Shown here piece by piece: positions 18,252 to 58,160 of a DNA stretch of 64,000 nt; position 1 is the first letter of the stretch, and each line of letters begins with the position of its first letter. The translations under genes were made by a program, and so were the position numbers. Where the stretch lies: contig JAQUOV010000004.1 of assembly GCA_028716965.1 (NCBI GenBank), positions 8,377-72,376 on the forward strand, in the 5' to 3' direction. The notes beneath the pieces are model-generated. The model was not told the origin of the DNA and made no database searches. It saw only the letters and a program-made list of their open reading frames with translations. The DNA is from Candidatus Omnitrophota bacterium. Lineage in GTDB: Bacteria > Omnitrophota > Gorgyraeia > Gygaellales > Profunditerraquicolaceae.

Positions 18252-18710
18252 AAAAAGAGCAGAACTATACATAAGCGCCCTACGTGGGATGAATATTTCC
18301 TGGAGATGGCAGGCTTGGTTGCCAAAAGGTCAACCTGCCTGCGCCGCTCTGTTGGTGCGGTATTGGTAAGAGAAAAAAGAATTTTGGCTACCGGTTATAA
18401 CGGCGCTCCCAGCGGTTTGAAGCACTGTGTTGAAATCGGCTGTATACGCCAGCAGTTAAAGATACCTTCCGGAGAACGCCATGAATTATGCCGCGCCTTA
18501 CATGCAGAGCAGAACGCGCTTATCCAGGCCTGCCTGCACGGCATAAGCGTAAAAGGCGCAACTTTATATGCCACTAATCAGCCGTGCGTTATCTGCGCCA
18601 AGATGCTCATTAACGCCGGGATAAGGGAGATCGTAATTGCCGAAGGCTACCCGGACAAAATGGCGATGAGCTTCTTAAGGCAGGCAAAGATAAGAATAAG
18701 GAAAATATGA
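18249..18710 (+). CDS. Deoxycytidylate (dCMP) deaminase, ComEB-like
   Basis: 153 aa. CDA-fold zinc motifs HAEQNA and PCVICAKML; N-terminus KRPTWDEYF typical of dCMP deaminases. Stop TGA lies inside the left arm of element A2. Confidence 0.8.
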
Positions 18711-19011
18711 ACCCCGCACCTTCTTTAAATTCAATAATGTACCATGCGTATCTTCTTAAAAGTAAAAAGAATGATACTTTTTATATTGGATATACAAATA
18801 ATATTGAAAGAAGGTTAAAAGATCATAGCTCCGGGATAGTTGAATATGCAGGGAAATATGTGCCTTGGGAAATAGTGTATTATGAAAGCTCTATTTCCTT
18901 GGTTGATGCTAATCAAAGGGAGAGATCTCTTAAATCTTTTGGGAGGGCATATTCAGGTTTAAAACTTAGAATTAAAAATAGCTTGAATAAGAAAGAAGGT
19001 GCGGGGTGAAG
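18704..19011 (+). mobile_element. Family A full-length element: TIR-flanked YhbQ-like GIY-YIG cassette (putative autonomous copy)
   Basis: Left end ATATGAACCCCGCACCTTCTTTAAATTCAA and right end TTGAATAAGAAAGAAGGTGCGGGGTGAAG are inverted complements (16-bp perfect core ACCCCGCACCTTCTTT). The ends enclose a 100-codon GIY-YIG ORF. Confidence 0.75.
18707..19009 (+). CDS. GIY-YIG nuclease superfamily protein (UPF0213/YhbQ-like)
   Basis: 100 aa. [32 protein letters not shown] matches the GIY-(x10)-YIG plus conserved R/H catalytic region of YhbQ-like proteins. Conserved EGAG near the C-terminus as in E. coli YhbQ. ATG overlaps upstream TGA (ATGA); its TGA overlaps the nrdR GTG (GTGA). Confidence 0.8.
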
Positions 19012-19473
19012 TGTCCGTTTTGCGGATATAAAGAGGATAAGGTCGTGGACTCCCGCGCTACAGCCGAAGAATCGGCAGTCAGGCGCAGAAGGGAATGCCT
19101 GAAATGCGGCAAGCGTTTCACTACTTATGAGTATGTTGAAGAGGTCTCTTTGTTAGTGATCAAGAAAGACGGCCGCAGGGAGGCCTTTGACCGTAAAAAG
19201 ATCTTAGCCGGTATAATCCGCGCCTGCGAAAAGCGTCCGGTGAGCGTGGAAAAGATGGAAGGGGTAGTTGTCCAGGTTGAGCATGCCATCCAGAAGAAAA
19301 GTGACCGCGAGGTTTTGTCCAGCAGGATAGGGGAGCTGGTTATGGAGAAGCTTAAGCAGATTGATGATGTTGCTTATGTGCGCTTTGCCTCGGTCTATAG
19401 GCAGTTTAAGGACGTGGGGCAGTTTATGGTGGAGTTGAGGGATATTTTGGGCAAAGATAAGAAGAAGAAATAG
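19006..19473 (+). CDS. nrdR: Transcriptional repressor NrdR
   Basis: 155 aa. N-terminal zinc ribbon MKCPFCG...CLKCGKRFTTYE plus ATP-cone; GTG start supplied by the element A2 right arm. Confidence 0.9.
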   Translation: MKCPFCGYKEDKVVDSRATAEESAVRRRRECLKCGKRFTTYEYVEEVSLLVIKKDGRREAFDRKKILAGIIRACEKRPVSVEKMEGVVVQVEHAIQKKSDREVLSSRIGELVMEKLKQIDDVAYVRFASVYRQFKDVGQFMVELRDILGKDKKKK

Positions 19474-19475
19474 GC

Positions 19476-19548
19476 GGTTAGCGGGTCCTGGCGAGGCTTG
19501 TTTTCGCCGCGCACCGCGACTCAAATCAAGCCTCGCCACCCGCTAACT
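19476..19548 (+). repeat. Family B 73-nt nested-hairpin repeat, copy 2 (after nrdR)
   Basis: Outer stem GGTTAGCGGGT/ACCCGCTAAC, second stem GCGAGGCTTG/CAAGCCTCGC, inner CGCGcacCGCG. Same 73-nt length and architecture as 7899-7971, with compensatory substitutions. Confidence 0.7.
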
Positions 19549-19587
19549 ATATTTCTTGTCTTTCCCTAAAACATAGAGGAGCCGGTA

Positions 19588-20001
19588 ATGGTTGAGATGG
19601 AGTTGAATAAGATTGTAATTGACGAGAAACGGCATGACCAGTTGATTGTTTTGAAAGAAAAAGGCGGCACGCGGGTTTTGCCGATCGTCATCGGCCTAAA
19701 TGAGGCCTCGGCCATAAAATTAAAGATCAGCGGGTTCAACCCGCCGCGGCCCCTTACGCACGATTTAATTTATACGATGCTTAAGGATTTAAACGCGGAT
19801 GTGGAGAAGGTGATTATCGATAAGCTGGAAGATACCACCTTTCATGCCAAGATCTTTATTAAAACCGGCAGCGGAGATTCAAGGATCATTGATGCCCGCC
19901 CTTCGGATAGCGTGGCTTTGGCAGTGAGGTTCCATGCTCCGATTTTTGTAGAAGATGAGATCGTCAGGCAGTTTGAGTTGTTTGATAAAGATAAGCAGTA
20001 A
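19588..20001 (+). CDS. Bifunctional nuclease family protein (DUF151/BFN domain)
   Basis: 137 aa. LPIVIGLNEASAI...RPLTHDL pattern typical of the DUF151 family. Confidence 0.75.
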   Translation: MVEMELNKIVIDEKRHDQLIVLKEKGGTRVLPIVIGLNEASAIKLKISGFNPPRPLTHDLIYTMLKDLNADVEKVIIDKLEDTTFHAKIFIKTGSGDSRIIDARPSDSVALAVRFHAPIFVEDEIVRQFELFDKDKQ

Positions 20002-20028
20002 AATACCCCACCTTAAATCTTAACGCTT

Positions 20029-21477
20029 ATGGAGCTTGGATTTAACGAGAAAGATAAAAGTATTTTAAGGCCGGTTTATGATTTTGCCAAAACCAGGAAG
20101 GTAAAATTATACCTTGTGGGCGGGGCGCTGCGCGATTTAATCTTAAGACGCCGGAAGAGTAATCCGGATTTTGATTTTTGCCTGTGCCGCGGGGCGATAA
20201 ATTTCGGCCGTAAGTTAGCCGCGAAACTAAGGGCAGGATTTGTAGTCCTGGATGAGGAGCACGCTGCCTGCCGGCTGGTAAAGAAGATCGGCGATAAGGT
20301 TTATACTTTTGATTTTACGGATTTCCGCGCCAGGACCCTGGAAAAAGACCTTTTGCACCGGGATTTTACCATAAACTCCATGGCCGTGGAGTTTAAAGAT
20401 GTCTTTAGCGGAGAAGATTTAAGCACATTAATTATTGATCCTTATTCCGGCAGGCAGGATATTAAGCGCAAGATCATCCGTGCCTGCGGCAGCAACTCTT
20501 TCAAAGAAGACCCTTTGCGGATCCTGCGCGCTTTTAGCTTTAGCTGTATGCTGGATTTTGCCCTGGATAAAGAAACATTGCGCCTGGCAAAAAAAGATAA
20601 ACATTTGATCAGCGATGTATCAAGCGAGCGCATCCGGGAAGAGTTATTCAAGATCTTTGACAGCCTTACGGCCGGTGCTTCTTTAGCTGTGTTGGACAAG
20701 CTTAAGATTTTAGAGATTATTTTCCCCGAGATAAAGCCCATGCGCGGTATCGGCCAGGGGCCTTATCATCACCTGGACGTCTGGCAGCATACCCTGGAGA
20801 CCTTAAGCCAGTTTGAGTTATTATTGAGCTCCTTTAAACAGAACCCTGAAATAAGCAAGTATCTGGAAGAGGAGGTCGCCGGACAGCGCAAAAGGTCAAG
20901 CCTTTTGAAGCTGGCCTGTATTTTGCACGATGTAGGTAAGCCGAAAGCCTTGCGCAGGGAAAAGGGCAAGATTATCTTCCATGGCCATGAAAGAATAGGC
21001 CTGGGAATAACCCGTATGATTTCCCGCAGGCTGAAGTTATCCAATGACGAAACCCGCTCCCTGGAAAGGATTGTACTCTGGCATTTAAGGCCGGGATACC
21101 TGGCGGACTGCATTCGGCCGACTGAGCGGGCGATCTTCAGGTATTTTCGCGATACCGGGGATGATGCCCTGGCAGTGCTTTTGTTATCGCTGGCTGACCA
21201 GCGTGCTACCAAAGGCCCGCTGACCACAGCGCTTTCGCGCGTACGCCATGAGAAAACAACAAAGGCGTTAATTAAAAGGCTGTTAAAACAAAAAGACGAA
21301 AAGGAATTAACCCGCCTTTTAAACGGCAATGACCTGATGCGTAAATTCAAATTAATGCCTTCGCCGCTGATCGGCAAAGTGCTCGCGGGCCTGGAGGAGG
21401 CGCAGGCCATCGGCAGGATTAAGAATAAAGAGCAGGCTTTTAAACTGGCAGCTTCCATAATTAAACAAAAAAAATGA
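20029..21477 (+). CDS. cca: CCA tRNA nucleotidyltransferase / poly(A) polymerase family with HD domain
   Basis: 482 aa. Pol-beta NTase head motif LVGGALRDLIL. HD motif region ILHDVGKP...HGHE. Confidence 0.85.
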   Translation: MELGFNEKDKSILRPVYDFAKTRKVKLYLVGGALRDLILRRRKSNPDFDFCLCRGAINFGRKLAAKLRAGFVVLDEEHAACRLVKKIGDKVYTFDFTDFRARTLEKDLLHRDFTINSMAVEFKDVFSGEDLSTLIIDPYSGRQDIKRKIIRACGSNSFKEDPLRILRAFSFSCMLDFALDKETLRLAKKDKHLISDVSSERIREELFKIFDSLTAGASLAVLDKLKILEIIFPEIKPMRGIGQGPYHHLDVWQHTLETLSQFELLLSSFKQNPEISKYLEEEVAGQRKRSSLLKLACILHDVGKPKALRREKGKIIFHGHERIGLGITRMISRRLKLSNDETRSLERIVLWHLRPGYLADCIRPTERAIFRYFRDTGDDALAVLLLSLADQRATKGPLTTALSRVRHEKTTKALIKRLLKQKDEKELTRLLNGNDLMRKFKLMPSPLIGKVLAGLEEAQAIGRIKNKEQAFKLAASIIKQKK

Positions 21478-23969
21478 AGAAGTTCATCATAATCGCCTTA
21501 ATCCTGCTTCTGCTTGTTTTTGCGGGGGCCGTGTATCTGAACGCTTTTTTCCTCCCCGGAAAGATAAAATCCATCATTGTCTCCACTTTGGCCCAGAAAA
21601 CAGGCAAGAATGTTACTCTTAGGTCTGTAGAGTTTAATATATTCAAAGGGCTGGTGCTGCGCGACCTGTCCATCTCAGACAACCAGCAGGTAATTGTAAG
21701 CGCCCGCCAGGCAAACTGCGTTATTTTCATCTGGCCTGTCTTTAAAAAGAAGATTATTATCCCCAGTATAAGCCTTAAAAGCCCGTATATATTTTTGGAG
21801 CGCAGAAAGGACGGTTCTTTTAACCTCCAGGATATTTTTGCCTCTGGCCCTGCGCTTGTAAAGTTGCCTGAAGCAAAGGAATCTAAATCAGGGAACTCCC
21901 AATTCAGCGTATCGGTTTACAGGATAAATATATCTTCCGGAACTATTGTTTTCCAGGATGATACCCCGGCAGTTCAGTTCAAGAAAGAGATAAACAATAT
22001 CCAGCTTAGCGTTGGCCTTGCTCTGCCGGTAAGCGTAAAGTTTAATTTTAAAGGGGACCTCGTTAATAACTCCGCGCCTTCTGCCCCTGCCGCCGGCTCT
22101 GTTTATGCCTGGGGAGAATACAGGATTTTAGGCCGAAAGCTATCCGCTAATTTATCGGCCAATAACCTGCTGCCCGCTGATTTCAAGCCTTATTACGGTA
22201 ATCTTGGTTTGGATTTGCTTTCGGGTACAGTTGACGCGCAGGCAAAAATAAATCTTAGGGAACAGGTCTTGCATATTGAGACAACCGCCAAAGCTGCCAA
22301 GCTGATTTTTGCGAAGAATAAGGTCACTGCCAGTTTAAACCTGGGCCTGGAAACCAAGGTCAATTATAACCTGCAGTCTAAAAAGGTTTCTTTTGACGGT
22401 AATTGCGATATCCGGCAGGCCGATATAAGCGGTTTGGATTTCTTCGGGGAACTGAAAAATCTTTATGGAAAAATTTCTTTTAACGAGCGTTCTTTGGTGG
22501 CCCAGGGTTTAAAGGCGGAAGTTTTAGGTATCCCATTTGAGGTTAACCTGGGGATCAAAGATTTTAACACTTGGGCCTTGAATATAAGCACTAATTTGAG
22601 CTTAAGCTTTCTGCCGGAGATCGCAAAGGAGAAATTTAATTTTACAAATGTGAACTCCGCGCTGGGCAAGGCGGAGTTGTTTGTTAAACTGCATCCGGAC
22701 GGAAAAGGCGGCTGGGCAATACAAGGTAAAGTGGATATCGCAGAGGCAGGCCTGAAATTTTCCCGGCAGGACGTGCCGGTAGAGAATATTTTCGCCACCT
22801 TTGAATTCAGCCAGCAGGGATTCAGCTGGTCGGAGACAAGATTTAAATATCAGGGGGTGGATTACCAGAGCAGCGGTGAGCTGTCTGACTTCTCCGCGCC
22901 TAAGGTAAGGATGCAGTTGTCTTCGCGGAGTTTATCCGTGGCCACTGTTTTTGAGATTGTTGGTAAGAAGATCAAGATTACCCAGGCCAAAGGTAAATAC
23001 CTTAATTCCCAGTTTCTCATCAGCGGCGATATTGATAATTCCGATCCTGCCGCACCGCAGGTGGATGTTGACGGAAAAGTTAACCTGGACCTGGGGGATT
23101 TAAGCGCGGCATGGGAGAAGAAATATCCTGCCATAAAGAATATGCAGCCAAAAGGCCAGCTGGATGCGCAGTTTAATCTGAACGGGCGGGTCCATGATAT
23201 CAAGAGTTGTTCTATCCAGGCAAAATTGTCCAGCAATAACATTTCTTTGCATGGTTTAAGCGCAAGCCAGTTCATGCTGGATTACCTGCAAGAGCAGAAG
23301 ATAGCCAGGGTAACTTCAATAGGCGCCGTTTTTTACGACGGGACAATTAACGGCAGCGCATCGCTTAACCTTGATTCGGATAATTTGCCGTATCATATAG
23401 AGCTGGCGGCAGAGGGAGTAAGGCTTGAGAAGCTGAAGCAGGATACATCATCCAGGAATAAAAATATCTCCGGTGTTTTGCGCGGGGAAATTAAACTTAA
23501 CGGTTTCTCCGGGGATTTGAATAAACTTAGCGGCTCGGGTGATTTTTCCGTCAAAGAAGGCAGGCTCTGGGAGTTGAATTTACTCCAGGGAGTGGGAAAG
23601 CTGTTATTTGCCAAGGACCTGGCAAGTATTGAGCTTTCGGAATGCGCATGCGCATTCCTGGTAAAAAGCGGCTTTGCTTATACGGATAACCTGAAGCTAA
23701 AGGGAAATGTCGCCGAACTTGCCGGGCCATTCAAGATCGGTTTTAACGGTTCCCTTGACGCAGCTTTAGAGGTGGATATCTTAAGCGAGATGGTGCCTTT
23801 AAGCGGTACGTTAAAGGATATTACTACCGCATTTATGGGCAAGGTGGGTAAAATCGGCGTAATTAAATTAAGCGGCTCGCTAAGTGAACCAAAATATTCC
23901 TTCCGGCCGGCTGTAACCAATATTATTAAAGGCCTTACCGATGTTTTTTTTGGTAAGAAGCCCCAATAA
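21474..23969 (+). CDS. AsmA-family / DUF748-like large membrane-anchored periplasmic protein
   Basis: 831 aa. N-terminal TM anchor MKKFIIIALILLLLVFAGAVYL, then a long beta-rich repetitive region typical of AsmA/TamB-like outer-membrane biogenesis proteins. Confidence 0.65.
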   Translation: MKKFIIIALILLLLVFAGAVYLNAFFLPGKIKSIIVSTLAQKTGKNVTLRSVEFNIFKGLVLRDLSISDNQQVIVSARQANCVIFIWPVFKKKIIIPSISLKSPYIFLERRKDGSFNLQDIFASGPALVKLPEAKESKSGNSQFSVSVYRINISSGTIVFQDDTPAVQFKKEINNIQLSVGLALPVSVKFNFKGDLVNNSAPSAPAAGSVYAWGEYRILGRKLSANLSANNLLPADFKPYYGNLGLDLLSGTVDAQAKINLREQVLHIETTAKAAKLIFAKNKVTASLNLGLETKVNYNLQSKKVSFDGNCDIRQADISGLDFFGELKNLYGKISFNERSLVAQGLKAEVLGIPFEVNLGIKDFNTWALNISTNLSLSFLPEIAKEKFNFTNVNSALGKAELFVKLHPDGKGGWAIQGKVDIAEAGLKFSRQDVPVENIFATFEFSQQGFSWSETRFKYQGVDYQSSGELSDFSAPKVRMQLSSRSLSVATVFEIVGKKIKITQAKGKYLNSQFLISGDIDNSDPAAPQVDVDGKVNLDLGDLSAAWEKKYPAIKNMQPKGQLDAQFNLNGRVHDIKSCSIQAKLSSNNISLHGLSASQFMLDYLQEQKIARVTSIGAVFYDGTINGSASLNLDSDNLPYHIELAAEGVRLEKLKQDTSSRNKNISGVLRGEIKLNGFSGDLNKLSGSGDFSVKEGRLWELNLLQGVGKLLFAKDLASIELSECACAFLVKSGFAYTDNLKLKGNVAELAGPFKIGFNGSLDAALEVDILSEMVPLSGTLKDITTAFMGKVGKIGVIKLSGSLSEPKYSFRPAVTNIIKGLTDVFFGKKPQ

Positions 23970-24001
23970 TTAGAAAAGAGAGGGGTAGCATCCGGGTATA
24001 A

Positions 24002-25578: not shown

Positions 25579-25584
25579 CCAAAA

Positions 25585-26319: not shown

Positions 26320-26320
26320 A

Positions 26321-26921: not shown

Positions 26922-27851
26922 GTGAGGATAAAGAATACGGAGATTAAGGTTGTGCTGGGGGATATTACGGAGATAAGGGCGGATGCGATTGTGAATGCCG
27001 CTAACAACAAGCTGGTTATGGGCGGGGGAGTAGCCGGGGTAATTAAGAAAAAAGGCGGCAAGGTGATTGAAGAGGAGGCGCTTAAGAAGGGGCCGATAGG
27101 TATCGGAGAGGCGGTTGAGACTTCCGCCGGAGAGCTGGCGGCAAAATATGTGATTCATGCGGCGACCATGGGAATGGATTTTAAAACAGATGAAGTGATG
27201 ATCCGTAATGCCTGCAGGAGTTCCTTAAAGCTGGCCGAAGAATTGAAGATTGGTTCTGTTGTTTTTCCGGCTTTGGGGTGCGGCACAGGAGGCTTTCCGC
27301 TTTTGGCTTGCGCAAAGATTATGGCGCAGGAAGTGCTAAGACACCTGCGGGAAGAAAATACCTGTTTAGATGAGATTGTTTTCTGCCTTTATACTCAAGA
27401 TGCGTTTACGGTTTTTAATAAAGGCGTTTTAGGGTATTTGGAATACGTGACTACAAAGTTATCCTCGGGCCCGTTTGTGACGGTAGATGCGATTATTGAA
27501 TTGCCCGAGGGGATTGTAATTATCCAGCGCAGCAACCCGCCGTTTGGCTGGGCGCTTCCGGGAGGGTTTGTGGATTACGGCGAAAGCCTGGAGCAGGCGG
27601 TAAAAAGAGAGGCTAAAGAAGAAACAAACCTGGATTTAATTAACATCAAGCAATTCCGCACTTATTCAAATCCCAAGCGCGACCCAAGATTCCACACTAT
27701 CGGTACGGTATTCATTGCTAAAGCAAAAGGTAGGCCTAAGGCAGGGGATGACGCGGCAGGTTTAAAAATTATCAAACCTGCCGAGATAGAGAAGCTTGAT
27801 TTTGCTTTTGACCACAAAGACATCCTTCATGATTACCTCAAAACAAAATAG
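26922..27851 (+). CDS. Macro domain (ADP-ribose/O-acetyl-ADP-ribose binding) fused to Nudix hydrolase
   Basis: 309 aa, GTG start after GGAGGA. N-terminal macro motifs [21 protein letters not shown] and HAATMG. C-terminal Nudix box [29 protein letters not shown]. Confidence 0.8.
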
Positions 27852-27923
27852 GGACGTTTCTTGACCCAATCGGAGAAGTGTCCCCATAGGGGACACTTCT
27901 CCCTTTAGCTTGAGAAACGTCCC
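27851..27923. terminator. Family E 73-nt palindromic hairpin between convergent genes (likely bidirectional terminator), copy 1
   Basis: GGGACGTTTCTTGACCCAATCGGAGAAGTGTCCCC pairs with GGGGACACTTCTCCCTTTAGCTTGAGAAACGTCCC. Located between the Macro-Nudix stop (27851) and the helicase stop (27929). Confidence 0.6.
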
Positions 27924-27928
27924 TAATA

Positions 27929-29809: not shown

Positions 29810-29859
29810 GATTTCTATTATAAGCCAAAAAGCCGCAACCGCAATATAATAATCTCAAT

Positions 29860-30085: not shown

Positions 30086-30113
30086 TATCTTATAATAATA
30101 ATATAATAAAAAT

Positions 30114-32934: not shown

Positions 32935-33025
32935 CGGATGGTCCTTAAGCCAAGGGAAAAGTGTCCTTTGTAGAGGAAGTTATCCACTACGGGGACACTT
33001 CTCCGATTGGCTCAAGAAACGTCCC
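32935..33025 (+). repeat. Family E hairpin, degenerate copy 2 (after spoVG)
   Basis: Right half GGGGACACTTCTCCGATTGGCTCAAGAAACGTCCC (32991-33025) is the inverted complement of the E1 left arm. Left partner CCAAGGGAAAAGTGTCC is degenerate. Confidence 0.5.
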
Positions 33026-33035
33026 TGCTTAAAAG

Positions 33036-45797: not shown

Positions 45798-47715
45798 GGC
45801 CGCAAGCCTCCTTACTTCTTTTCTGCCTTTAAATGTGAGCCTGTTTTTTGGCAGGAGGCTGGGGGACCTTATTTATTTCTTTGATGCCCGGCACCGCGGG
45901 ATCGCCTGCGCCAATATCAGGAGGGCCATAGTAATGAATAATGACTTCCTGCAGGCCCGCAAGATAACACGCAGGGCTTATCAGTCTTTTGGCCAGAACC
46001 TTATAGAGATTTCTTTTATCCCGCGCATAAATAAAAAATATCTTGATAAATTCATCCATATTGAAAACAGGCAGTATATTGATGAAGCCTTTAAAAGGGG
46101 CAAAGGGGTAATCTTTCTGGCTGCCCATGAAGGTAATTGGGAGCTTTCTAATATTATCTGTGCCAACCTGGGTTTTTCGTTTATCCTGTTTGTCCGCGAC
46201 CAGGGTTTCGTGCGGCTAAACGCCCTGCTTAATTCTTACCGGCTTAAGCAGGGCGCAAAGATTATCCATAAAAAAACCGGGCTGCGCCAGTTGATTGATG
46301 TGCTTGAAAGCAACCAATCCATAGGCATGACCGTTGACCAGGGGGGCAAGCACGGAGAGGTAGTGAATTTCTTTGGCAAATCCGCCTCGATGTCTACCGG
46401 TGCGGTGAAGCTGGCCCTGAAACATGACTGTTCCATAATCCCTGTTTTTTATACGCGCATAAAAGGGCCTCATACTAAAGTTATCCTGGATCAGGTTTAT
46501 ACGGTAAGCAAAAGCGGGGACCTGCAAAGGGACCTGCGCGATAACCTGGAGAGGCTGGTCAATATTTACGAGAAATATATCCGGCAATACCCCCACGAGT
46601 ATCTCTGGACTTATAAAATTTGGAAGTATGGCAAAGAAAAAGATATCCTCATTCTTTCCGACGGTAAGGCCGGGCACCTGCGCCAGTCTGAAAGCGTAGC
46701 TAAGTTAGCCAGCCGGAAATCAGCTGCCCGGGGGGTAAAGACTACTTTGTCTATTTGCGAAGTGAAATTCCGCACCAGCCTGCGCAGGTTTATATTCAGC
46801 CGGATGGTTGTACTATGCGGCAGGCATCAATACCATCTCTGCCTGCGTTATCTGCGCTATGCGCTGGAGGCAGCAAGCTGGCAGAGTTTGATCGGTTTCA
46901 AGCCCGATATTGTTATTTCCGCAGGGGGTAAATTGAGCGGGGTAAATTATATGCTGGCTAAAATAAACCAGGCTAAATCAATTGTCCTGATGCGTCCGGC
47001 AGCCCTAAACCCAAAGGGATTTGACCTGGCAATTATTCCCGAACACGATATGCCGCAGGGCCGTGGTTTGGCTTTCAGGAAAAATATAGTACTAACCGAA
47101 GGGGCGCTTAATTTGGTGGATGCGGATTATCTAAGAGAAAGGTCAGAGAGGCTGCAGCAGTCAGGTTTTTTGAAAGGGCCTTTGTTGAAACCCTGTATCG
47201 GAGTTTTGATCGGCGGCAATAGCAGGAAGTTTTCAATTACCCGGCAGGCGATAATAGAACTGGCAGGTCAAATCAAGGGGGCTGCTGAAAAGCTTGATGC
47301 GGATATCCTCTTATCCACCTCGCGCCGTACGCCGCCTGAAATAGAACAGCTGCTTAAAAATGAATTTGAAGCTTATCCGCGCTGCAGGCTTTTAATTATT
47401 GCCAATGAAAGAAATCATCCTGATGCCGTAGGCGGCATACTGGGGTTAAGCAGGGTAATTGTCAGTTCGCCGGAGAGCATCTCCATGATCTCCGAAGCGG
47501 TGGCGGCAGAAAGATATGTTATCGTATTTATGGCCTCCGGCCTTAGTATGAAGCATCGGCGTTTCTTGAAAAGTTTTCAGGACAAGAGGTATATATATAT
47601 AAAACAGGCTGGAGAGTTGTTTAGCTCCATTGAAGAGATATGGCAAAACCGTCCTGAGCTTAACTTTTCTGCGGATAACTCAAGGGTAAGCGCAGCTTTA
47701 GATAAAATACTATGA
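45751..47715 (+). CDS. Lipid A late acyltransferase (LpxL/HtrB family) fused to ELM1/DUF1022-like domain
   Basis: N-terminal half has the HX4D acyltransferase motif (AAHEGNWELS) and EYLWTYKIWKY motif of LpxL. C-terminal ~330 aa resembles the mitochondrial-fission ELM1 / DUF1022 glycosyltransferase-like family. Annotated start overlaps lpxK by 47 nt, so the true start may be later. Confidence 0.7.
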   Translation: MKQNLIADYLSCFLFRAASLLTSFLPLNVSLFFGRRLGDLIYFFDARHRGIACANIRRAIVMNNDFLQARKITRRAYQSFGQNLIEISFIPRINKKYLDKFIHIENRQYIDEAFKRGKGVIFLAAHEGNWELSNIICANLGFSFILFVRDQGFVRLNALLNSYRLKQGAKIIHKKTGLRQLIDVLESNQSIGMTVDQGGKHGEVVNFFGKSASMSTGAVKLALKHDCSIIPVFYTRIKGPHTKVILDQVYTVSKSGDLQRDLRDNLERLVNIYEKYIRQYPHEYLWTYKIWKYGKEKDILILSDGKAGHLRQSESVAKLASRKSAARGVKTTLSICEVKFRTSLRRFIFSRMVVLCGRHQYHLCLRYLRYALEAASWQSLIGFKPDIVISAGGKLSGVNYMLAKINQAKSIVLMRPAALNPKGFDLAIIPEHDMPQGRGLAFRKNIVLTEGALNLVDADYLRERSERLQQSGFLKGPLLKPCIGVLIGGNSRKFSITRQAIIELAGQIKGAAEKLDADILLSTSRRTPPEIEQLLKNEFEAYPRCRLLIIANERNHPDAVGGILGLSRVIVSSPESISMISEAVAAERYVIVFMASGLSMKHRRFLKSFQDKRYIYIKQAGELFSSIEEIWQNRPELNFSADNSRVSAALDKIL

Positions 47716-47794
47716 ACCTCGCACCTTCTAAGTATCCGACTATTAAAGGTATGAGGTTGAATGGATTTATTAAAGAGGAAGGTGCGGGGTGAAG
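47711..47794 (+). repeat. Family A junction element, copy A3
   Basis: TATGAACCTCGCACCTTCT ... GAGGAAGGTGCGGGGTGAAG. In-frame micro-ORF MNLAPSKYPTIKGMRLNGFIKEEGAG. Supplies the TGA stop of the upstream gene and the GTG start of the downstream gene. Confidence 0.75.
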
Positions 47795-49882: not shown

Positions 49883-49958
49883 ACCCCGTATCTTCTCTAT
49901 TTAACTATTGAAGCCCATACGGGTTAAAGAATTGGTTAAGAATGAAGGTGCGATGAAT
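49878..49958 (+). repeat. Family A junction element, copy A4 (degenerate)
   Basis: GATGAACCCCGTATCTTCTCTATTTAACTATTGAAGCC ... AAGAATGAAGGTGCGATGAAT. Frame broken by an internal stop; right arm runs in-frame into the ATG of the downstream GT4 gene. Confidence 0.65.
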
Positions 49959-51053: not shown

Positions 51054-51081
51054 TGTTTATTCTCCGGGGGTATAAGCGTAA

Positions 51082-52119
51082 ATGAGCAAGGTTAAGCAGG
51101 CAGAACGTATCCTTATTTTTAATGTTAACTGGCTGGGGGATGTTTTGTTTTCTACCGCCACCATCAGGAATGTGCGCAGGAATTACCCCGAAAGCTATAT
51201 CGCCTGCGTGATCCCCAGCCGTTGTTACCCGATATTAAAAGGCAATCCGCATCTAGATGAAGTGATTATCTTTGATGAAAAAGACAGGCATAAGGGGATG
51301 CTTGCCAAGCTCAATTTTATCAGGCTGCTGAAGAGCAAGAAATTTGATACTGTATTCCTGTTGCACCGTTCATTCAGCCGGGCTCTCATTTGCCGATTGG
51401 CCGGCATAGGGCAGAGGATCGGCTATCATACCAAAAAACGTTCTTTCCTCCTTACCCGCAGGATTGTTATGCCGAAACAGGATTCCCTACACCGCATAGA
51501 TTTTTACCTGAATGTTATTGAAAAGGCGGGGCTGCGCGTAGAAGACAGGTACCTGGATTTTTCTTTTACCCCCGAAGAAGAAAAATATGTGGATGATTTT
51601 TTAAGCCGGAACTCTGTGCATCAAGATGATCTCCTGGTTGTGCTTAACCCCGGGGGAAATTGGATCCCCAAGCGTTGGCCCAGGGATTATTGGGCGCTCC
51701 TGGCGGATAAATTAATCAGCGAAATAAAAGCGAAAGTGGTCATCACCGGCAGCATCTCTGATTTGCCATTGGTTAACCAGATAAAAGAAAAAATGAGAGA
51801 GAAGCCTTTAGTCTCCTGCGGAGTTTTTAATATAAAACACCTGGGTGCGCTGGCCAGGAGGGCGGATATGTTTATTACCGCCGATACCGGCCCGATGCAT
51901 ATCGCCAATGCCGTGGGGGCTAAAAAGGTGATAGCGATTTTCGGGCCGACGGCCAAAGAGATTACCGGCCCCTATCCGGATACGAATGTGGTTATTTTAC
52001 AGAAAGATACCGGCTGCCTGATACCGTGTTATAGGGTAAATTGCCGGAATAACCGTTGCATGAAAGCGGTTACTCCCGATGATGTCTTGGCGCAAATCAG
52101 GAAGATCAGGAAGAGATGA
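51082..52119 (+). CDS. Glycosyltransferase family 9 (ADP-heptose:LPS heptosyltransferase, WaaF/WaaC-like)
   Basis: ILIFNVNWLGDVLFSTATIRNV and TADTGPMHIANAVGAK motifs of GT9. Confidence 0.8.
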   Translation: MSKVKQAERILIFNVNWLGDVLFSTATIRNVRRNYPESYIACVIPSRCYPILKGNPHLDEVIIFDEKDRHKGMLAKLNFIRLLKSKKFDTVFLLHRSFSRALICRLAGIGQRIGYHTKKRSFLLTRRIVMPKQDSLHRIDFYLNVIEKAGLRVEDRYLDFSFTPEEEKYVDDFLSRNSVHQDDLLVVLNPGGNWIPKRWPRDYWALLADKLISEIKAKVVITGSISDLPLVNQIKEKMREKPLVSCGVFNIKHLGALARRADMFITADTGPMHIANAVGAKKVIAIFGPTAKEITGPYPDTNVVILQKDTGCLIPCYRVNCRNNRCMKAVTPDDVLAQIRKIRKR

Positions 52120-54131
52120 AGATACTTTTCGTGACTTTAAGCAATATAGGCGACTGCATTTTGACCCTTCCGGTTTTAGATGCCTTGCGCAACGAATACC
52201 CTCAGGCCCTGATCAGCTGTCTTGTGCCTGAACGGCCTAAGGAAATTTTCATCAACAATCCCGCCGTAGAAAAGATAATCGTTTTTGATAAGCGTTCCAG
52301 CCTGGCGGATAAGATAAAATTGTTCCTTTCTCTGAGCAGGGAAAGGTTTGATATAGTCATTGATTTACGAAACAGCTTTTTCGGGGCCTTCCTGCCGGCT
52401 AAAAAAAGGAGTTCGCCGCTGCGCTTCATTCCGGGCAAGTTCAGGCATATGAAAGATAAGCATCTGTTCTGGGCGGGTTTTGCCGGTTATCCTATGAGGG
52501 ATAAAAAACAGCAATCTTTGGTTATTGCCCCCGAAGATGTTGCTTATATTGAGAAGATTTTGAATAGCCGCGGGCTGACTGACAGCGCTAAATTGATCGT
52601 GGTTTCTCCCGGAGCAAGGAGCCAGGTCAAACGCTGGGATAAGCATAATTTCAGCCTGCTTTGCAGTCGGCTTATAAAAGAAGGCTGGGATATCGCCCTG
52701 GCAGGGGATAAGAGCGATGAGCCTGTATGTGAATATGTTTTTCATGCGGCTCCGGAAAAAATACTCAATCTTTGTTCTAAAACTTCAATCAGCCAACTGG
52801 CTGCCTTGTTAAAAAAATCACGCCTTCTTGTTACTAACGACAGCGCGGTAATGCATTTGGCCAGCTATTTAAATGTCCCGGTTGCTTCAATATTCGGGCC
52901 TACTGATGAAAACAAATACGGTCCCTGGTCGCAGAAGAAACTAATTATAAAAAAAGACATCTTCTGCCGGCCGTGCGAAAAAGCCCAGTGCCGTTTTGCT
53001 ACTCTGGCATGTTTATCTTGCCTGAAGGTTGATGATGTGCTTGGGCAGATAAAGGGTTTGCTTAAGGGTGCGGAAAATCCGGATACCGGCAATACCCGCC
53101 AAAGCTATAGGCGTATCCTGGTTGTGCGCACTGACCGCATAGGCGATGTGCTGTTGTCTACGCCGGTAATTAAAGCTTTAAGGGATAAGTATCCCCAGGC
53201 TTACATTTCCATGATCGTGGCCCCTTATGCGCGGGATATTGTGGAGGGCAACCCGTATCTGGATGAAATTATAATTTATGATAAGGATAACAAACATAAA
53301 GGTTGGCTGCATTCACTTAAATTTGCCCGCAAATTAAGAAAAAAGAGATTTGATTTAGCGGTGATATTACATCCTACCAACCGCATGCATCTGCTGCTTT
53401 TTCTTACCGGGATCCCCAAGCGGTTAGGTTATAAACGCAAATTTGGTTTTTTGAATAATCCGGCAAAAGCCCATCTAAAACAGGAAGGCCTAAAGCATGA
53501 ATCAGAATATAACCTGGATTTAGTGCGCGATTTAGGCATAAGCGGCAATCCGCAGGACCTCTTCATGCCTGTAAGGCAGGAATCAGAGCAGTGGGTCAAT
53601 GATTTATTCTCCGGGTGCGGGATCAAAGAGGCGGATAAATTGCTGGCGATTAATCCCGGCGCAAGCTGTCCCTCAAAGATCTGGCCGGCGGCTAACTTTG
53701 CGCAGGTTGCCGAAATATTAGCCAGGCGGCATAGTTTTAAAATCCTGATTGTCTCCGGGCCCAAGGATACTTTGCTTGCAAACATGATCGCTAATAAAAT
53801 CGGTGAGCAGGCGGTAAACCTGTCCGGCAAGACCTCGGTAAGCCACCTGGCCAGTGTCCTTAAAAGGTGCGTTTTATTTATTTCTAATGATTCCGGGCCG
53901 GTTCATATTGCGTCAAGTTTAGGGGTGCCGGTTGTTTCTATTTTTGGGCGTAACCAGCCCGGGCTTAGCCCGCGGCGCTGGGGGCCGTTAGGCAGGAAGG
54001 ATAAATACCTGCATAAAGACGTAGGCTGCATCCAATGCCTGGCGCATAACTGTAAAAAGGAGTTTGCCTGCCTTAAGGCAATCAGCGTTGAGGATGTGCT
54101 TGCTGCCGTCGAATCCATACTCAAAGGTTAA
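52116..54131 (+). CDS. Tandem double glycosyltransferase family 9 (two heptosyltransferase domains in one ORF)
   Basis: First GT9 domain MKILFVTLSNIGDCILTLPVLDAL ... NDSAVMHLASYLNVP. Second RRILVVRTDRIGDVLLSTPVIKAL ... NDSGPVHIASSLGVP. Confidence 0.75.
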   Translation: MKILFVTLSNIGDCILTLPVLDALRNEYPQALISCLVPERPKEIFINNPAVEKIIVFDKRSSLADKIKLFLSLSRERFDIVIDLRNSFFGAFLPAKKRSSPLRFIPGKFRHMKDKHLFWAGFAGYPMRDKKQQSLVIAPEDVAYIEKILNSRGLTDSAKLIVVSPGARSQVKRWDKHNFSLLCSRLIKEGWDIALAGDKSDEPVCEYVFHAAPEKILNLCSKTSISQLAALLKKSRLLVTNDSAVMHLASYLNVPVASIFGPTDENKYGPWSQKKLIIKKDIFCRPCEKAQCRFATLACLSCLKVDDVLGQIKGLLKGAENPDTGNTRQSYRRILVVRTDRIGDVLLSTPVIKALRDKYPQAYISMIVAPYARDIVEGNPYLDEIIIYDKDNKHKGWLHSLKFARKLRKKRFDLAVILHPTNRMHLLLFLTGIPKRLGYKRKFGFLNNPAKAHLKQEGLKHESEYNLDLVRDLGISGNPQDLFMPVRQESEQWVNDLFSGCGIKEADKLLAINPGASCPSKIWPAANFAQVAEILARRHSFKILIVSGPKDTLLANMIANKIGEQAVNLSGKTSVSHLASVLKRCVLFISNDSGPVHIASSLGVPVVSIFGRNQPGLSPRRWGPLGRKDKYLHKDVGCIQCLAHNCKKEFACLKAISVEDVLAAVESILKG

Positions 54132-54164
54132 TTGATATTTTGTTCTTCGAGATATTGTTCGCAT

Positions 54165-54395: not shown

Positions 54396-54426
54396 AATAA
54401 ATATCCATTTGCTTTGGGATTAAATT

Positions 54427-55374
54427 GTGCTAAAATCATTGTCTATGATTGATCCAAAGAAGGTAAAAAGGTATTCTATCAAAACACGCTTCAGTAAGGT
54501 GAATGAGAAGGATTTTGCACTTAAGCCGGCTAAACTTAAGAGCTTCCGCGCCTTCTTAGATTCCTTGCCGGATATCCTTAAAGCCAGGGATTTGCGCGCC
54601 CTTTCTGCGGATGTCGCCTCGGCAGCCAGGAAGAAGAAGGCGGTGATTTTGATGGCCGGCGCGCACGTGATTAAGTGCGGGCTTAACCCGGTGTTAATAG
54701 AGCTGATGAGAAAGAAGGTAATCAGCTGTATCTGCCTTAACGGCGCCGGGATCATCCATGATTTTGAGATTGCCTTTCAGGGCAAAACATCCGAAGACGT
54801 TGCCGAAAACCTTAAAAACGGCAGTTTCGGCATGGGCAAGGAAACCGCGGATTTTATTAATCAGGCGGTTAAAGACGGGGTGAGCGAAGGCTTAGGCCTG
54901 GGCAGTTCCGTGGGAAAGATGATCTCCGATGAGAAATTGGCGTATAAGGATTTGAGCCTGCTTTATAACGCTTATAAATATAATCTGCCGGTATGCGTTT
55001 TCGTGGGGATCGGTACGGATATCATCCATCAGCATCCTTCATTTGACGCCGGTTTAACCGCCGAAGGCTCGTTGCGCGATTTCCACACTCTCGTCGAGAA
55101 GATAAGCTCGTTAAACAAAGGGGGAGTGGTTTTAAATTTTGGTTCAGCGGTGCTTTTACCCGAAGTATTCTTAAAAGCGCTTAACCTGGCGCGAAACCTC
55201 GGGAATAAAGTCAAGGATTTTACTACCGCCAACTTTGATATGATTTATCATTACCGGCCGGCGCAGAATGTGGTGAACCGTCCTACTCATTCAGGAGGCA
55301 GGGGCTATTACATTATCGGCCATCACGAGATAATGCTGCCGCTTTTAGCGCAGGCGGTCATCGAAAAAATATGA
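54427..55374 (+). CDS. Deoxyhypusine synthase-like family protein
   Basis: 315 aa. Segments CLNGAGIIHDFE, PVCVFVGIGTDIIHQ and GGVVLNFGSAV parallel the DHS/homospermidine-synthase fold motifs. Embedded within the LPS gene block. Confidence 0.5.
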   Translation: MLKSLSMIDPKKVKRYSIKTRFSKVNEKDFALKPAKLKSFRAFLDSLPDILKARDLRALSADVASAARKKKAVILMAGAHVIKCGLNPVLIELMRKKVISCICLNGAGIIHDFEIAFQGKTSEDVAENLKNGSFGMGKETADFINQAVKDGVSEGLGLGSSVGKMISDEKLAYKDLSLLYNAYKYNLPVCVFVGIGTDIIHQHPSFDAGLTAEGSLRDFHTLVEKISSLNKGGVVLNFGSAVLLPEVFLKALNLARNLGNKVKDFTTANFDMIYHYRPAQNVVNRPTHSGGRGYYIIGHHEIMLPLLAQAVIEKI

Positions 55375-55453
55375 ACCCCGCACCTTTTTTAATTTAGTTA
55401 TTATAAGGTGCAGGGGTTAGAATTCATGAATAAAGAGAAGGTGCGGGGTGAAG
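55370..55453 (+). repeat. Family A junction element, copy A5 (degenerate)
   Basis: TATGAACCCCGCACCTTTTTTAATT ... AAGGTGCAGGGG ... AATAAAGAGAAGGTGCGGGGTGAAG. Micro-ORF broken (MNPAPFLI stop); 1-nt deletion in the right arm. Confidence 0.7.
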
Positions 55454-56464
55454 AACCTAAAAAAGATAATCGCAAAGTTCAATCAGGCAAAGATCTTAGT
55501 TGCCGGCGATCTGATTCTTGATCAGCATATTTGGGGCAATGTTGAAAGAATCTCTCCGGAGGCGCCTGTACCGATTGTCCGCGCCAATAGAAGGAATTAT
55601 GTCCCCGGAGGCGCAGCCAATGTCGCTAACAATATTAGCGCTTTCGGCGCCAAAGTCAGCCTATGCGGGGTATTGGGTGACAGCAAAGACCCGGCTACAG
55701 AAAAGTTTCAGCTTGAGGCTAAGAAACTGGGCATTGATACTAAAGGTGTATTTTTTGAAGAGGGCAGGAAAACAACCCTCAAGACCAGGATTATTGCCGG
55801 CCATCAGCAGGTAGTAAGAGTTGATTGGGAAGATGTGCATAATGTCTCCAGGCATATAAAAGATAAGCTTATTAAATACCTTGTTGATAATATAAGAAAA
55901 TTTGACGCTGTTATTATTGAGGATTATGGAAAGGGGCTTCTTGACCGGCAATTGACGAGGCATATTATTAAAACAGCCAGAGATTTTAAGAAGATAGTAA
56001 CCGTTGATCCGAAAGAGAATAATTTTGATTGCTATAAGCAGGCTACCTGTATTACCCCTAACCGAAAAGAAACCCAGAACGCCATTAGGTATCTTAAGAT
56101 GAATGACCGGGGGAATTTGTTCAGGATTTACAAAGAGGACCTGCTTATGGACGGTGATATTATAAAAGCGGGAGAGGAAATATTGGAGTATTTGCAATTA
56201 GAGAGCCTTTTGATTACGCTTGGCGAAGGCGGCATGTGGCTTTTTGAGAAGGGGCAGAATAAACCTATTCCGACCGTAGCACAGGAGGTTTTTGATGTAT
56301 CAGGCGCAGGGGATACGGTAATCAGCAGTTTTACCCTGGCGCTTTGTGCCGGCGCTTCAAAACTGGAGGCTGCGCATATCGCTAATTTCGCCGCAGGAAT
56401 TGTAGTGGGTAAATTGGGTACTGCTGTAACAAATTGCCGGGAACTTTTAGAGAGGATTAAATAA
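55448..56464 (+). CDS. hldE: D-glycero-beta-D-manno-heptose-7-phosphate kinase (HldE/RfaE domain I, PfkB family)
   Basis: GTG start within the repeat arm. KILVAGDLILDQHIWGNVERISPEAPVP N-terminus and GAGD motif (DVSGAGDT) of RfaE kinase domain. Confidence 0.8.
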   Translation: MKNLKKIIAKFNQAKILVAGDLILDQHIWGNVERISPEAPVPIVRANRRNYVPGGAANVANNISAFGAKVSLCGVLGDSKDPATEKFQLEAKKLGIDTKGVFFEEGRKTTLKTRIIAGHQQVVRVDWEDVHNVSRHIKDKLIKYLVDNIRKFDAVIIEDYGKGLLDRQLTRHIIKTARDFKKIVTVDPKENNFDCYKQATCITPNRKETQNAIRYLKMNDRGNLFRIYKEDLLMDGDIIKAGEEILEYLQLESLLITLGEGGMWLFEKGQNKPIPTVAQEVFDVSGAGDTVISSFTLALCAGASKLEAAHIANFAAGIVVGKLGTAVTNCRELLERIK

Positions 56465-56465
56465 A

Positions 56466-57206
56466 ATGGATGTAATCGCAGTTATACCGGCCAGGTATTC
56501 ATCTACCAGGTTTAAAGCCAAAGTGCTGGCTGATATCATGGGTAAGCCCATGTTGCAGCATGTATGGGAACGGGCTAAGGCAAGCCGCATATTGGATGAT
56601 TTGATTATTGCCTGTGATGATGAGATAATCCGCAAGGCAGCTGTGAAGTTCGGGGCTAAAACCGTGATGACCTCAAAAGAGCATACCTGCGGCACTGACA
56701 GGATAAGCGAGGTGGTCAACCCCCTGGATGTAAAGGTTGTTATAAATATACAAGGGGATGAACCGTTGATCCATCCGATGATGATCGATAATGTCGCGCG
56801 GGCATTATTAGAAGACAGCTCATTGAGCATGGCGACGATTATGAAGAGGATTGAAGACCCCGCGCAGGTTGCCGATCCGAACGTGGTAAAGGTAGTGGTG
56901 GACAAGAACGGCCTTGCCTTGTATTTCTCGCGTGCCCCTATTCCTTATCTGGCAGAGAACGCAGAGGTAAAAGATGCACTTTATTACAAACATATCGGGC
57001 TTTACGGTTATACCAAGGATTTCCTTTTTACTTATAAAAACCTGCCTGTTTCCAATCTTGAGAAGGCCGAGAAACTGGAGCAGCTGCGCGTATTGGCGGA
57101 AGGATTTAAAATTAAAGTGATCGAGACTAAATTTGATACCATAAGCGTGGATACTCCGGAGGACCTGGAGAAGGTGAAAGAATTATTGCAAAAGGGGATA
57201 AGCTGA
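56466..57206 (+). CDS. kdsB: 3-deoxy-manno-octulosonate cytidylyltransferase (CMP-Kdo synthetase)
   Basis: N-terminus MDVIAVIPARYSSTRFKAK and IQGDEPLI motif. Confidence 0.9.
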   Translation: MDVIAVIPARYSSTRFKAKVLADIMGKPMLQHVWERAKASRILDDLIIACDDEIIRKAAVKFGAKTVMTSKEHTCGTDRISEVVNPLDVKVVINIQGDEPLIHPMMIDNVARALLEDSSLSMATIMKRIEDPAQVADPNVVKVVVDKNGLALYFSRAPIPYLAENAEVKDALYYKHIGLYGYTKDFLFTYKNLPVSNLEKAEKLEQLRVLAEGFKIKVIETKFDTISVDTPEDLEKVKELLQKGIS

Positions 57207-58018
57207 TGCATGAGGTTAGCGCGGGGAATATAAAATTCGGGGCCGGCAATCCGCTCGTGCTTATTGCCGGGCCTTGTGTTATTGAGTCGGAAAGCTCATG
57301 CCTTAAGGCTGCCGGAAGGATTAAGGCGATCGTTTCTTCCTGCGGGGTCCCGTTTGTTTTTAAATCCAGCTTTGATAAGGCCAACCGGCTTTCCGGAGAT
57401 TCTTACCGCGGCCCGGGCCTAAGCAAGGGTTTGGTTATTTTGAAAAAAGTAAAGCAGCAGTTAAAGGTCCCTGTTTTAAGCGATGTGCACTGCGCAAAGG
57501 ATATGCCTGCGGCCGCTGAAGTGCTGGATATTATCCAGATACCGGCTTTTTTGTGCCGTCAGACGGATATTGTATTGGCAGCCGCAAAAACCGGCAAGGT
57601 GGTCAATATAAAGAAAGGCCAGTTCCTTGCGCCCTGGGATATTTTACCCATCATCAAAAAGGTGGAATCCGCCGGGAATAAGAAGATATTGATTACGGAA
57701 AGAGGGGTAAGTTTTGGTTATAATAACCTGGTTACGGATTACCGCAGCCTTTCGATTATGCGTAATTTCGGGTATCCGGTAATTTACGATGCTACCCACA
57801 GCGTGCAGCTTCCCGGCGGGAAAGGCACCTGTTCAGGCGGGCAAAGCGAATTTGTTGCGGGGTTATCCAGGGCAGCCGTAGCTTTCGGCTGCGACGGGCT
57901 GTTCCTTGAGGTGCATGTTGACCCTAAAAGCGCGCCTTGCGACGGAGCGAACATGATTAATTTCAGCAAGCTGGAAGCCTTATTGAAACAAATCAGAAAG
58001 ATCGAGAGAGCATTATGA
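57206..58018 (+). CDS. kdsA: 2-dehydro-3-deoxyphosphooctonate aldolase (Kdo-8-P synthase)
   Basis: LIAGPCVIES, DATHSVQLPGG and KGTCSGGQSEF motifs of KdsA. Confidence 0.9.
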   Translation: MHEVSAGNIKFGAGNPLVLIAGPCVIESESSCLKAAGRIKAIVSSCGVPFVFKSSFDKANRLSGDSYRGPGLSKGLVILKKVKQQLKVPVLSDVHCAKDMPAAAEVLDIIQIPAFLCRQTDIVLAAAKTGKVVNIKKGQFLAPWDILPIIKKVESAGNKKILITERGVSFGYNNLVTDYRSLSIMRNFGYPVIYDATHSVQLPGGKGTCSGGQSEFVAGLSRAAVAFGCDGLFLEVHVDPKSAPCDGANMINFSKLEALLKQIRKIERAL

Positions 58019-58160
58019 ACCCCCGCACCTTCTGTAAATTCAAGTATCAGGAGAATACGGCTTAATGATTTAAATAAGAATGAAGGTTCCGGGATAAGTT
58101 GGTTTGAGGTTAAGATTTAAGATTTGAATGAATTCATAGGAGGAAGGTGCTGGGTGAAGA
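58014..58160 (+). repeat. Family A junction element, copy A6 (with duplicated right arm)
   Basis: TATGAACCCCCGCACCTTCTGTAAATTCAAG ... AATAAGAATGAAGGTTCCGGGATAAG ... GGAGGAAGGTGCTGGGTGAAG. Extra C breaks the micro-ORF frame. Confidence 0.7.

Follow-up and report, generated by a model that had tools for sequence, protein, structure and literature searches.

A candidate mobile element family of Omnitrophota with an SsnA-like GIY-YIG nuclease gene, miniature copies and insertion at start codons

Across a 64-kb stretch of a Candidatus Omnitrophota contig (64,000 nucleotides (nt) of JAQUOV010000004.1, assembly GCA_028716965.1; hereafter the window), repeat and pattern searches for paired inverted-repeat ends identified six copies (E1 to E6) of one element with the ends ACCCCGCACCTTCT and AGAAGGTGCGGGG. 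The window is operon-dense, with nearly every gene on the + strand in a genome that is ~92% coding, and all six copies lie between co-directional genes, at glyA-comEB, at comEB-nrdR and at four junctions in a lipopolysaccharide/KDO cluster. We consider it likely that they represent a family of mobile elements of Omnitrophota, in which an autonomous form of ~296 bp with a GIY-YIG nuclease gene is accompanied by miniature copies, and which inserts at NTGA/A (the slash marking the point of insertion) and swaps the start signals of the host gene for its own. The description that suits this element best is that of an Ssn-type GIY-YIG hairpin element accompanied by miniature derivatives.

Results

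Six copies with precise empty sites in close relatives

The copies had originally been predicted as perfect terminal inverted repeats, within 18704-58160, between constant flanks. The flanks are borne out, with each of the six copies preceded by NATGA and followed by TGAA (taking the outer end of E5). Five copies fall inside that span, with E1 ~530 bp outside it, and a perfect inverted repeat (14/14) is found in E2 only, the remaining copies carrying one to three mismatches per arm and E5 and E6 being decayed (Table 1). E5 is a composite in which a single left end, with an extra C, is combined with a decayed right end and a second right end. The short copies (~74 bp) are internal-deletion derivatives that behave like miniature inverted-repeat elements; in the 74-bp copies, ~30 nt remain from the left end and ~35 nt from the right, the latter still including the final nuclease codons.

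To compare orthologous junctions, we scanned metagenome contigs with ComEB, which yielded 80 syntenic glyA-comEB-nrdR loci, and examined the E3, E4, E5 and E6 junctions in contigs with homologues (84-90% identity) of a 697-amino-acid (aa) glycosyltransferase; L-numbers below denote loci in these and other related metagenome contigs and assemblies. The orthologous junctions of all six copies are empty in close relatives (85-90% protein identity). Each window insertion adds the element plus TGA relative to these junctions, and the reconstruction originally proposed, deletion of the element and one TGA, reproduces the relatives' sequence at all six sites. At the E2 site, where the window reads ..GGAAAATATGA/E2/TGAAGTGTCCGTTT, L122, the closest relative (88% identity), has ..GGAAAGTATGAAGTGTCCGTTT, identical to the window once E2 and a single TGA are taken out; a 4-bp NTGA overlap is present at comEB-nrdR in 35 of the 80 syntenic loci. 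L201 holds empty sites for E3, E6, E4 and E5, in that order ACT[ATGA]AGATACTG, ACT[ATGA]ATATATTG, GAT[ATGA]AGAACTT and GCT[ATGA]AGATAAATG. The empty ATGA overlap at the E3 junction recurs in L204, L206, L220 and L221, and L221 (90% identity) is empty at both the E3 and the E6 site, the latter reading GTGA.

The E1 site is laid out differently. Its closest relatives (L122, L129, L121 and L127) have a non-overlapping TAA-N-ATGAAAAAG, in some cases TAA-T-ATGAAAAAG, and in the window the glyA stop TAA (18168-18170) is followed by T and then ATGA/E1/TGAAAAAG. E1 is therefore inserted one base past the comEB start codon, at a junction that was not an overlap. Since orthologous empty sites exist for all six copies, the flanks are host sequence, outside the repeat. 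We had also considered a similarity immediately left of the repeat, ATYGAAAWAATATGA, as a possible part of the element, and rejected it because the same bases are present at the relatives' empty sites.

Occupancy of these junctions is recurrent as well as patchy. At comEB-nrdR, independent full-length elements occur in L133 and L135, with a nuclease 65% identical to that of the window, and independent short variants with ACCCCGCCCTTCC ends occur in L143 and L167, while L144 has one at glyA-comEB. At the E6 junction, the window, L065, L220 and L206 all carry an insert (a different element in L206), and L201 and L221 have none. Within L065, the elements at the E3 and E6 junctions share 93% identity but match the window copies at those positions at only 64-69%, so copies cluster by genome and not by site; such clustering would be expected from recent transposition or gene conversion within a genome, not from vertical descent. 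Tandem copies are found at the GTGA/A rebuilt by an earlier copy (L034, L065, L019 and E5 of the window), nested miniature copies at TTGA/AT within the 3' end of the nuclease gene (L222 and L223), and a full-length copy between rplP and rpmC in a ribosomal protein operon, evidence of how readily such insertions are tolerated. Taken together, the filled and empty sites, the recurrence, and the tandem and nested copies show, by comparative inference, that the element is mobile.

Further short inserts were seen at the same junctions. Those of L143, L144 and L167 form a sister family with the ends ACCCCGCCCTTCC and GGAAG(A/G)GC(G/T)GGG, at the same TGA/../GTGAA positions, and the E6-orthologous junction of L206/L207 carries, at 12095-12164, a 70-nt insert of another sequence family (GCCCGTTCTTGCC...GGGCGGCGGTGAAT) ending in GTGAAT. 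Several element families may share this target.

Table 1 Element copies, parts of elements and unoccupied candidate targets in the window
Feature	Position	Strand	Description
E1	18176..18249	+	74-bp miniature copy, glyA-comEB; flanks tatga/ACCCC..GGGA/tgaaa; TGA copies 18173-18175 and 18250-18252; comEB start ATG 18249-18251
E2	18711..19006	+	full-length copy, 296 bp, comEB-nrdR; nuclease gene inside; flanks tatga/ACCCC..GGGG/tgaag
E2 left inverted repeat	18711..18724	+	ACCCCGCACCTTCT
E2 right inverted repeat	18993..19006	+	AGAAGGTGCGGGG; AGGTG (Shine-Dalgarno-like) 4 nt ahead of rebuilt GTG
GIY-YIG nuclease reading frame	18707..19009	+	100 aa; Pfam PF01541, E=3.4e-12
E3	47716..47789	+	74-bp miniature copy; lipid A acyltransferase/ELM1-like gene - GT4/GT9 gene; flanks tatga/ACCTC..GGGG/tgaag; TGA copies 47713-47715 and 47790-47792
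E6	49883..49953	+	decayed miniature copy, ~71 bp; GT4/GT9 gene - GT4 gene; flanks gatga/ACCCC..GCGA/tgaat; GGGG decayed, the GCGA end giving ATG start 49953-49955
E4	55375..55448	+	74-bp miniature copy; deoxyhypusine-synthase-like gene - pfkB kinase gene; flanks tatga/ACCCC..GGGG/tgaag; inner right-end copy 55403-55416
E5	58019..58154	+	composite copy, 136 bp; DAHP-synthase-family gene - SIS/CBS gene; left end tatga/ACCCCC; GTG start 58154-58156
E5 inner right end	58081..58094		decayed; GGGA/taag
E5 outer right end	58142..58154		GGG/tgaag
Unoccupied candidate target	9488..9492	+	ATGAA stop/start overlap
Unoccupied candidate target	16923..16927	+	GTGAA stop/start overlap
Unoccupied candidate target	21474..21478	+	ATGAA stop/start overlap
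Unoccupied candidate target	52116..52120	+	ATGAA stop/start overlap

Target motif and duplication

A 14-mer repeat search of contigs extended the comparison of flanks beyond the window. Most of its matches were due to chance and only Omnitrophota loci with paired ends were usable; among the matches listed we curated 29 paired-end copies from many Omnitrophota assemblies, a sample and not a genome-wide census. The flank consensus, which the original prediction had proposed as a check, is consistent across these copies: the four bases before the element are A, T, G and A in 25, 26, 25 and 25 of the 29, and the three bases past the terminal T are G, A and A in 27, 27 and 26. In ~24 of the 29 copies a long reading frame begins with a GTG or ATG made up of the element's last base and TG, and only about half have a left TGA that terminates a long upstream frame. 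As read from these flanks, the constant target is NTGA/A, most often the start codon of the downstream gene, and not the stop/start overlap as such. The overlapping junction that had first been proposed as the target describes five of the six window sites, all ATGA overlaps, but neither the E1 site nor about half of the copies elsewhere. Orientation follows the gene strand even within one 8-kb locus (L093 711 on the + strand, L093 5851 on the - strand), and an orientation set by replication was rejected on account of these opposite-facing copies.

Site counts in the window favour a real site preference, with selection possibly contributing. Five of nine ancestral NTGAA overlap junctions are filled, as against none of the six overlaps in which the next base is G or T, and none of 44 fully intergenic TGAA/TTCA sites is occupied, compared with 6 of ~19 NTGAA start codons. 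These counts bear directly on the alternative that there is no start-codon preference and that insertion occurs at any TGA(A), or nearly at random, with selection removing the damaging copies. The nested copies at TTGA/AT and a copy between convergent genes at TTGA/C (L093 7144) indicate that the intrinsic motif is apparently only NTGA/A; moreover, no start context is commoner in the window than ATGAA, with NTGAA making up 19 of the 63 longest-frame starts, and in a genome that is ~92% coding most other insertions would be harmful. We nevertheless regard this alternative as unlikely, given the split between empty intergenic sites and six filled start codons, for which a rough probability is (19/63)^6 ~7e-4, and the independent hits on the same junctions in several lineages. 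Together with the filled ancestral overlaps, these counts argue for a high insertion rate at NTGAA starts, and a mixture with selection is possible.

The duplication is usually 3 nt (TGA), with a range of 2-4 nt: L033 368 fits 2 nt, and L222 fits either TGA plus an extra T or TTGA. At most sites its length cannot be fixed, because the terminal A and T of the element mimic the target. In a variant of our explanation, to which we assign a rather low probability, no target duplication takes place and an IS200/IS605-like single-stranded DNA element with its own ...GGGGTGA right end inserts 3' of a required TGA. The resulting sequence would be identical to that left by a 3-nt duplication, the apparent duplication does vary in length, and the related SsnA acts only on single-stranded DNA beside a hairpin, in a system whose authors note a resemblance to IS200/IS605 (PMC11893778). 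At off-consensus sites, however, the two flanks change together, as in L067 (TGG..TGG), L093 7144 (TTGA..TTGA) and L033 3580 (TGAG..TGAG), and duplication of target bases fits these pairs better than a fixed element end. The element also has terminal inverted repeats instead of two different subterminal hairpins and shows no HUH/Y1 transposase.

An SsnA-like nuclease encoded between the repeats

The sole reading frame of E2 is that of the GIY-YIG nuclease; neither a DDE transposase nor an HUH/Y1 protein was found in E2, and an NCBIfam search of the nuclease returned neither a transposase model nor a specific model. The Pfam match covers residues 11-77 of the 100 aa and a second domain is absent, so that the protein (90-100 aa across the family) is a bare nuclease domain lacking a DNA-binding domain. 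Its ATG is that of the host ATGA (18707-18710), which also ends comEB, and its TGA (19007-19009) overlaps the nrdR GTG (19006-19008). The inverted repeats are themselves translated, the left one into NPAPS and the right one into EGAG. An N-terminal MNPAPS and a C-terminal EGAG are kept in 48 homologues, found only in Omnitrophota or metagenomes and down to 46% identity, which indicates that the repeats belong to the gene cassette. An internal Met is absent from 7 of 34 aligned homologues, and these must therefore initiate at the captured upstream ATG.

The Ssn family consists of single-domain GIY-YIG nucleases of ~94 aa that bind the hairpin repeat known as NTS or SRM and cut only single-stranded DNA, a few bases upstream of the hairpin (Chenal et al., Nat Commun 2025, PMC11893778). 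Matches to two Neisseria gonorrhoeae chromosomes catalogued among plasmids were obtained by tblastn at the ssnA locus (33% identity, E=2e-4). The matched locus has a 94-aa frame with Y6, Y17 and E64 and is surrounded by seven canonical NTS repeats, and the combination of frame length, catalytic residues and repeats identifies it as ssnA. A profile of the Omnitrophota family scored SsnA at 56 bits over 72 residues, as compared with 45 and 39 bits for UPF0213 structures, and the catalytic Y5, Y16 and E62 (numbered from the internal Met) correspond to Y6, Y17 and E64 of SsnA. On this sequence evidence, the E2 nuclease is a homologue of SsnA, and it may belong to the cd10448 clade.

Exchange of translation signals read from the sequence

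After insertion, the TGA stop of the upstream gene is kept, and the host ATG, with any ribosome-binding site upstream of it, now opens the element frame (MNPAPS...); in L216 a GGAGG lies 9 nt upstream of the captured ATG. The downstream gene acquires a new start, a GTG made with the last G of the element, preceded at 4 nt by the AGGTG of the right repeat. The original prediction of how the two TGA copies are used holds for five window copies, in which one TGA serves as the stop and the other supplies the TG that, with the last G (or A) of the element, rebuilds the downstream start. In several copies the last G is changed to A, giving ATG, in some of them with a matching change at the left end, ATCCC..GGGAT (L093, L065 and L216). 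AGGTG would pair with CACCU, part of the 3' end that 16S rRNA usually has. In L216, whose nuclease is a distant homologue (47% identity), the compensated repeats ATCCCGCCCCTCCTT and AAGGAGGGGCGGGAT yield a canonical AAGGAGG 6 nt before ATG.

In predicted RNA folds the repeats form the closing stem, at -22 to -29 kcal/mol in four of the five short copies and at -18 in the decayed E5. In E1 and E3, the host ATG opens a 26-aa mini-frame that ends at the terminal TGA. Such a frame is open in ~8 of 21 short copies overall, above chance, and an open mini-frame as a requirement for coupling was accordingly rejected as a rule. In the mRNA, the stem would conceal the new ribosome-binding site until melted by a ribosome that completes the upstream gene or the mini-frame, and this melting would preserve translational coupling. 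Hiding of the site combined with coupling would explain why the element is tolerated in essential operons.

Proposed mechanism and further alternatives

We propose that the autonomous form of ~296 bp consists of a single pair of 14-nt terminal inverted repeats around the SsnA-homologous GIY-YIG gene (~90-100 aa). Insertion takes place right after NTGA if the next base is A, adding the element and a second TGA, and the GTGA/A rebuilt at the right end is used again as a target, giving rise to tandem and nested copies. The nuclease would act on the hairpin that both repeats form in single-stranded DNA, just as SsnA acts on hairpin repeats of its own, and in this way, together with host repair functions, would drive excision, insertion or both. 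In its strongest form, which we advance tentatively and hold to be possible without favouring it, the proposal is that an Ssn-type GIY-YIG nuclease mobilises a previously unrecognised class of prokaryotic transposable element, acting on a single-stranded DNA hairpin, integrating at NTGA/A, and taking the host start while giving a replacement.

Several points weigh against parts of this explanation. Every dataset used consists of metagenome assemblies, and the chemistry of transposition and the role of the nuclease are inferred; instead of mobilising the element, the nuclease gene could be a passenger or have been domesticated. GIY-YIG nucleases hydrolyse DNA, and strand joining is not known from them. 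The published SRM pattern, HGTCWYN(0-2)YYVSBRHN(0-5)WNVSBRGN(0-2)RNCYNB, has no match in the window; only its 5' half matches, and this only with its G relaxed to T. The arms of the Omnitrophota repeats are 45-270 nt apart and do not make a short local hairpin. Duplications of 2, 3 and 4 nt each fit most sites, selection instead of targeting could account for much of the start-codon enrichment, and with the mini-frame open in so few short copies, coupled translation through the element is not obligatory.

Two further alternatives are considerably less probable. The short copies could be intercistronic regulatory hairpins of the host that were passed on vertically and disappeared from some lineages, and the strong conservation of the repeat sequence over many Omnitrophota species, the location of the copies at transcribed operon junctions and the stable stem that hides a Shine-Dalgarno-like sequence are all in keeping with such a role. 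This is nonetheless highly improbable, since copies group by genome and not by junction, junction occupancy is patchy over the tree, empty sites in the closest relatives (88-90% protein identity) are precise, tandem and nested copies exist, and a nuclease gene lies within the same repeats. A classical free-standing GIY-YIG homing endonuclease, which would cut the empty allele and be copied into it by repair from the filled one, would place a GIY-YIG nuclease between genes, like the seg genes of phage T4, and leave precise empty alleles, yet it is scarcely credible for a bare catalytic domain of ~90 aa without a DNA-binding domain, found at many unrelated loci that share only NTGAA (at least six unrelated junctions are occupied in the window) and associated with non-coding miniature derivatives and a short duplication, which are hallmarks of transposition and not of homing.

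Relation to known systems and implications

The nearest account in the literature is that of the Ssn nucleases (PMC11893778). Their genes are flanked by repeats in a layout called 'identical to' that of insertion sequences, with hundreds more repeats between genes, and the mobility of this NTS-ssnA-NTS arrangement was only hypothesised and left open in that 2025 paper (PMC11893778). Both systems combine a single-domain GIY-YIG protein of ~94-100 aa, inverted repeats flanking its gene, and a scattered motif that is almost never within genes; in Omnitrophota, the five further copies in 64 kb are all intergenic and copies are present in many assemblies. Read on the bottom strand, the right end is TTCA(C/T)CCCGCAC, which is similar to the first (5') half of the NTS, GTCATTCCCGCG. 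By contrast, the Omnitrophota arms enclose a whole gene or a remnant of ~45 nt, whereas the Ssn repeats are short local hairpins of 20-50 nt, and the start-codon sites, the TGA duplication and the supplied ribosome-binding site and start are not described for Ssn, the term 'start codon' not appearing in PMC11893778.

Other repeat systems share fewer features. REP/REPIN sequences with RAYT proteins and the IS200/IS605 elements likewise have hairpin repeats and few small nuclease genes flanked by them, next to a motif of 3-5 nt, and probably act through single-stranded DNA hairpins; their enzymes are of the HUH/Y1 type, with distinct subterminal hairpins, while the Omnitrophota element has a GIY-YIG enzyme and simple inverted repeats and lies at gene starts, not gene ends. 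The Correia element of Neisseria and other miniature inverted-repeat elements are short copies with a duplication of TA or similar and are co-transcribed with their neighbours (PMC2229807, PMC3184786). They resemble the miniature copies in being short and non-autonomous, in having terminal inverted repeats and in possibly affecting the expression of neighbouring genes, but are DDE-derived or enzyme-less, and we found no description of start-codon targeting or ribosome-binding site replacement for them in the literature. Homing genes of the T4 seg or I-TevI type are also selfish GIY-YIG nuclease genes between host genes; their enzymes contain additional DNA-binding domains and recognise a single long cognate site, and the genes lack inverted repeats, miniature copies and a duplication. 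The palindromic elements of Rickettsia are mobile repeats tolerated in a compact genome by keeping reading frames, but insert in-frame within genes and join the protein, whereas the Omnitrophota copies sit at a gene boundary and leave the protein unchanged. Rfam had no family in the window, and a literature search returned no account of GIY-YIG inverted-repeat elements with miniature copies, start-codon insertion, TGA duplication or empty-site evidence.

Direct comparative evidence on mobility, the question left open in 2025, thus comes from the presence or absence of the element at a site, from repeated hits and from copies in tandem or nested arrangement, and the NTGA/A target and its duplication make the mechanism testable. 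Exchanging translation signals is an unusual route to survival in a ~92% coding genome; if the strongest form of our proposal is true, the element would be a transposon adapted to life within operons, those for ribosomal proteins among them, with next to no cost. For annotation, start codons, small 'GIY-YIG' or 26-aa frames and apparent spacers at such junctions are products of insertion. The enzyme family is also of interest as a single-stranded DNA tool, given its natural pairing of nuclease and recognition sequence with compensated variants.

Other repeats in the window and in related loci

Several other repeats were seen in the window. A near-perfect palindrome at 27849-27925 (TAGGGACGTTTCTTGACCCAATCGGAGAAGTGTCCCC), with 37-nt arms and a 3-nt loop, has a third copy 5 kb away at 32983-33026, and these copies bracket the only minus-strand gene, a DEAD/DSHCT helicase; they may be another repeat family or an inverted segment. 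Direct repeats of ~90-200 nt with 83-94% identity (10398-10597/36728-36928, 29865-30045/54188-54368 and 10639-10683) occupy larger non-coding gaps, bear no relation to the GIY-YIG element and are without a match in Rfam. An 81-nt GC-rich repeat with 80% identity, at 7885-7965 and 19462-19542, lies at or just past the ends of nrdR and of a second, unrelated gene, and may be terminator-like or REP-like.

In related loci, a different 127-nt insertion at comEB-nrdR (L124, 3463-3589) duplicates the first ~20 nt of nrdR and contains repeats of GGAAAGGTGACTGTCACG. L220 has a 272-nt insertion at 3947-4218, between an OsmC gene and a STAS/PilZ gene; its inverted ends are long (ATAATGGGCACATTGG...CCAATGTGCCCATTAT), and it is absent from other relatives. 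In L212, from an Omnitrophota relative, the ribosomal protein operon contains (features at 1211-1452, 3853-4091, 4714-4815 and 7126-7257) repeated AT-rich insertions of ~100-240 nt (TTTAAAATTTAAAATGCAAAATT...), a GC-rich hairpin element that starts right past TAA/ATGAAG and, after secY, a gene of the 23S rRNA intervening-sequence protein family.

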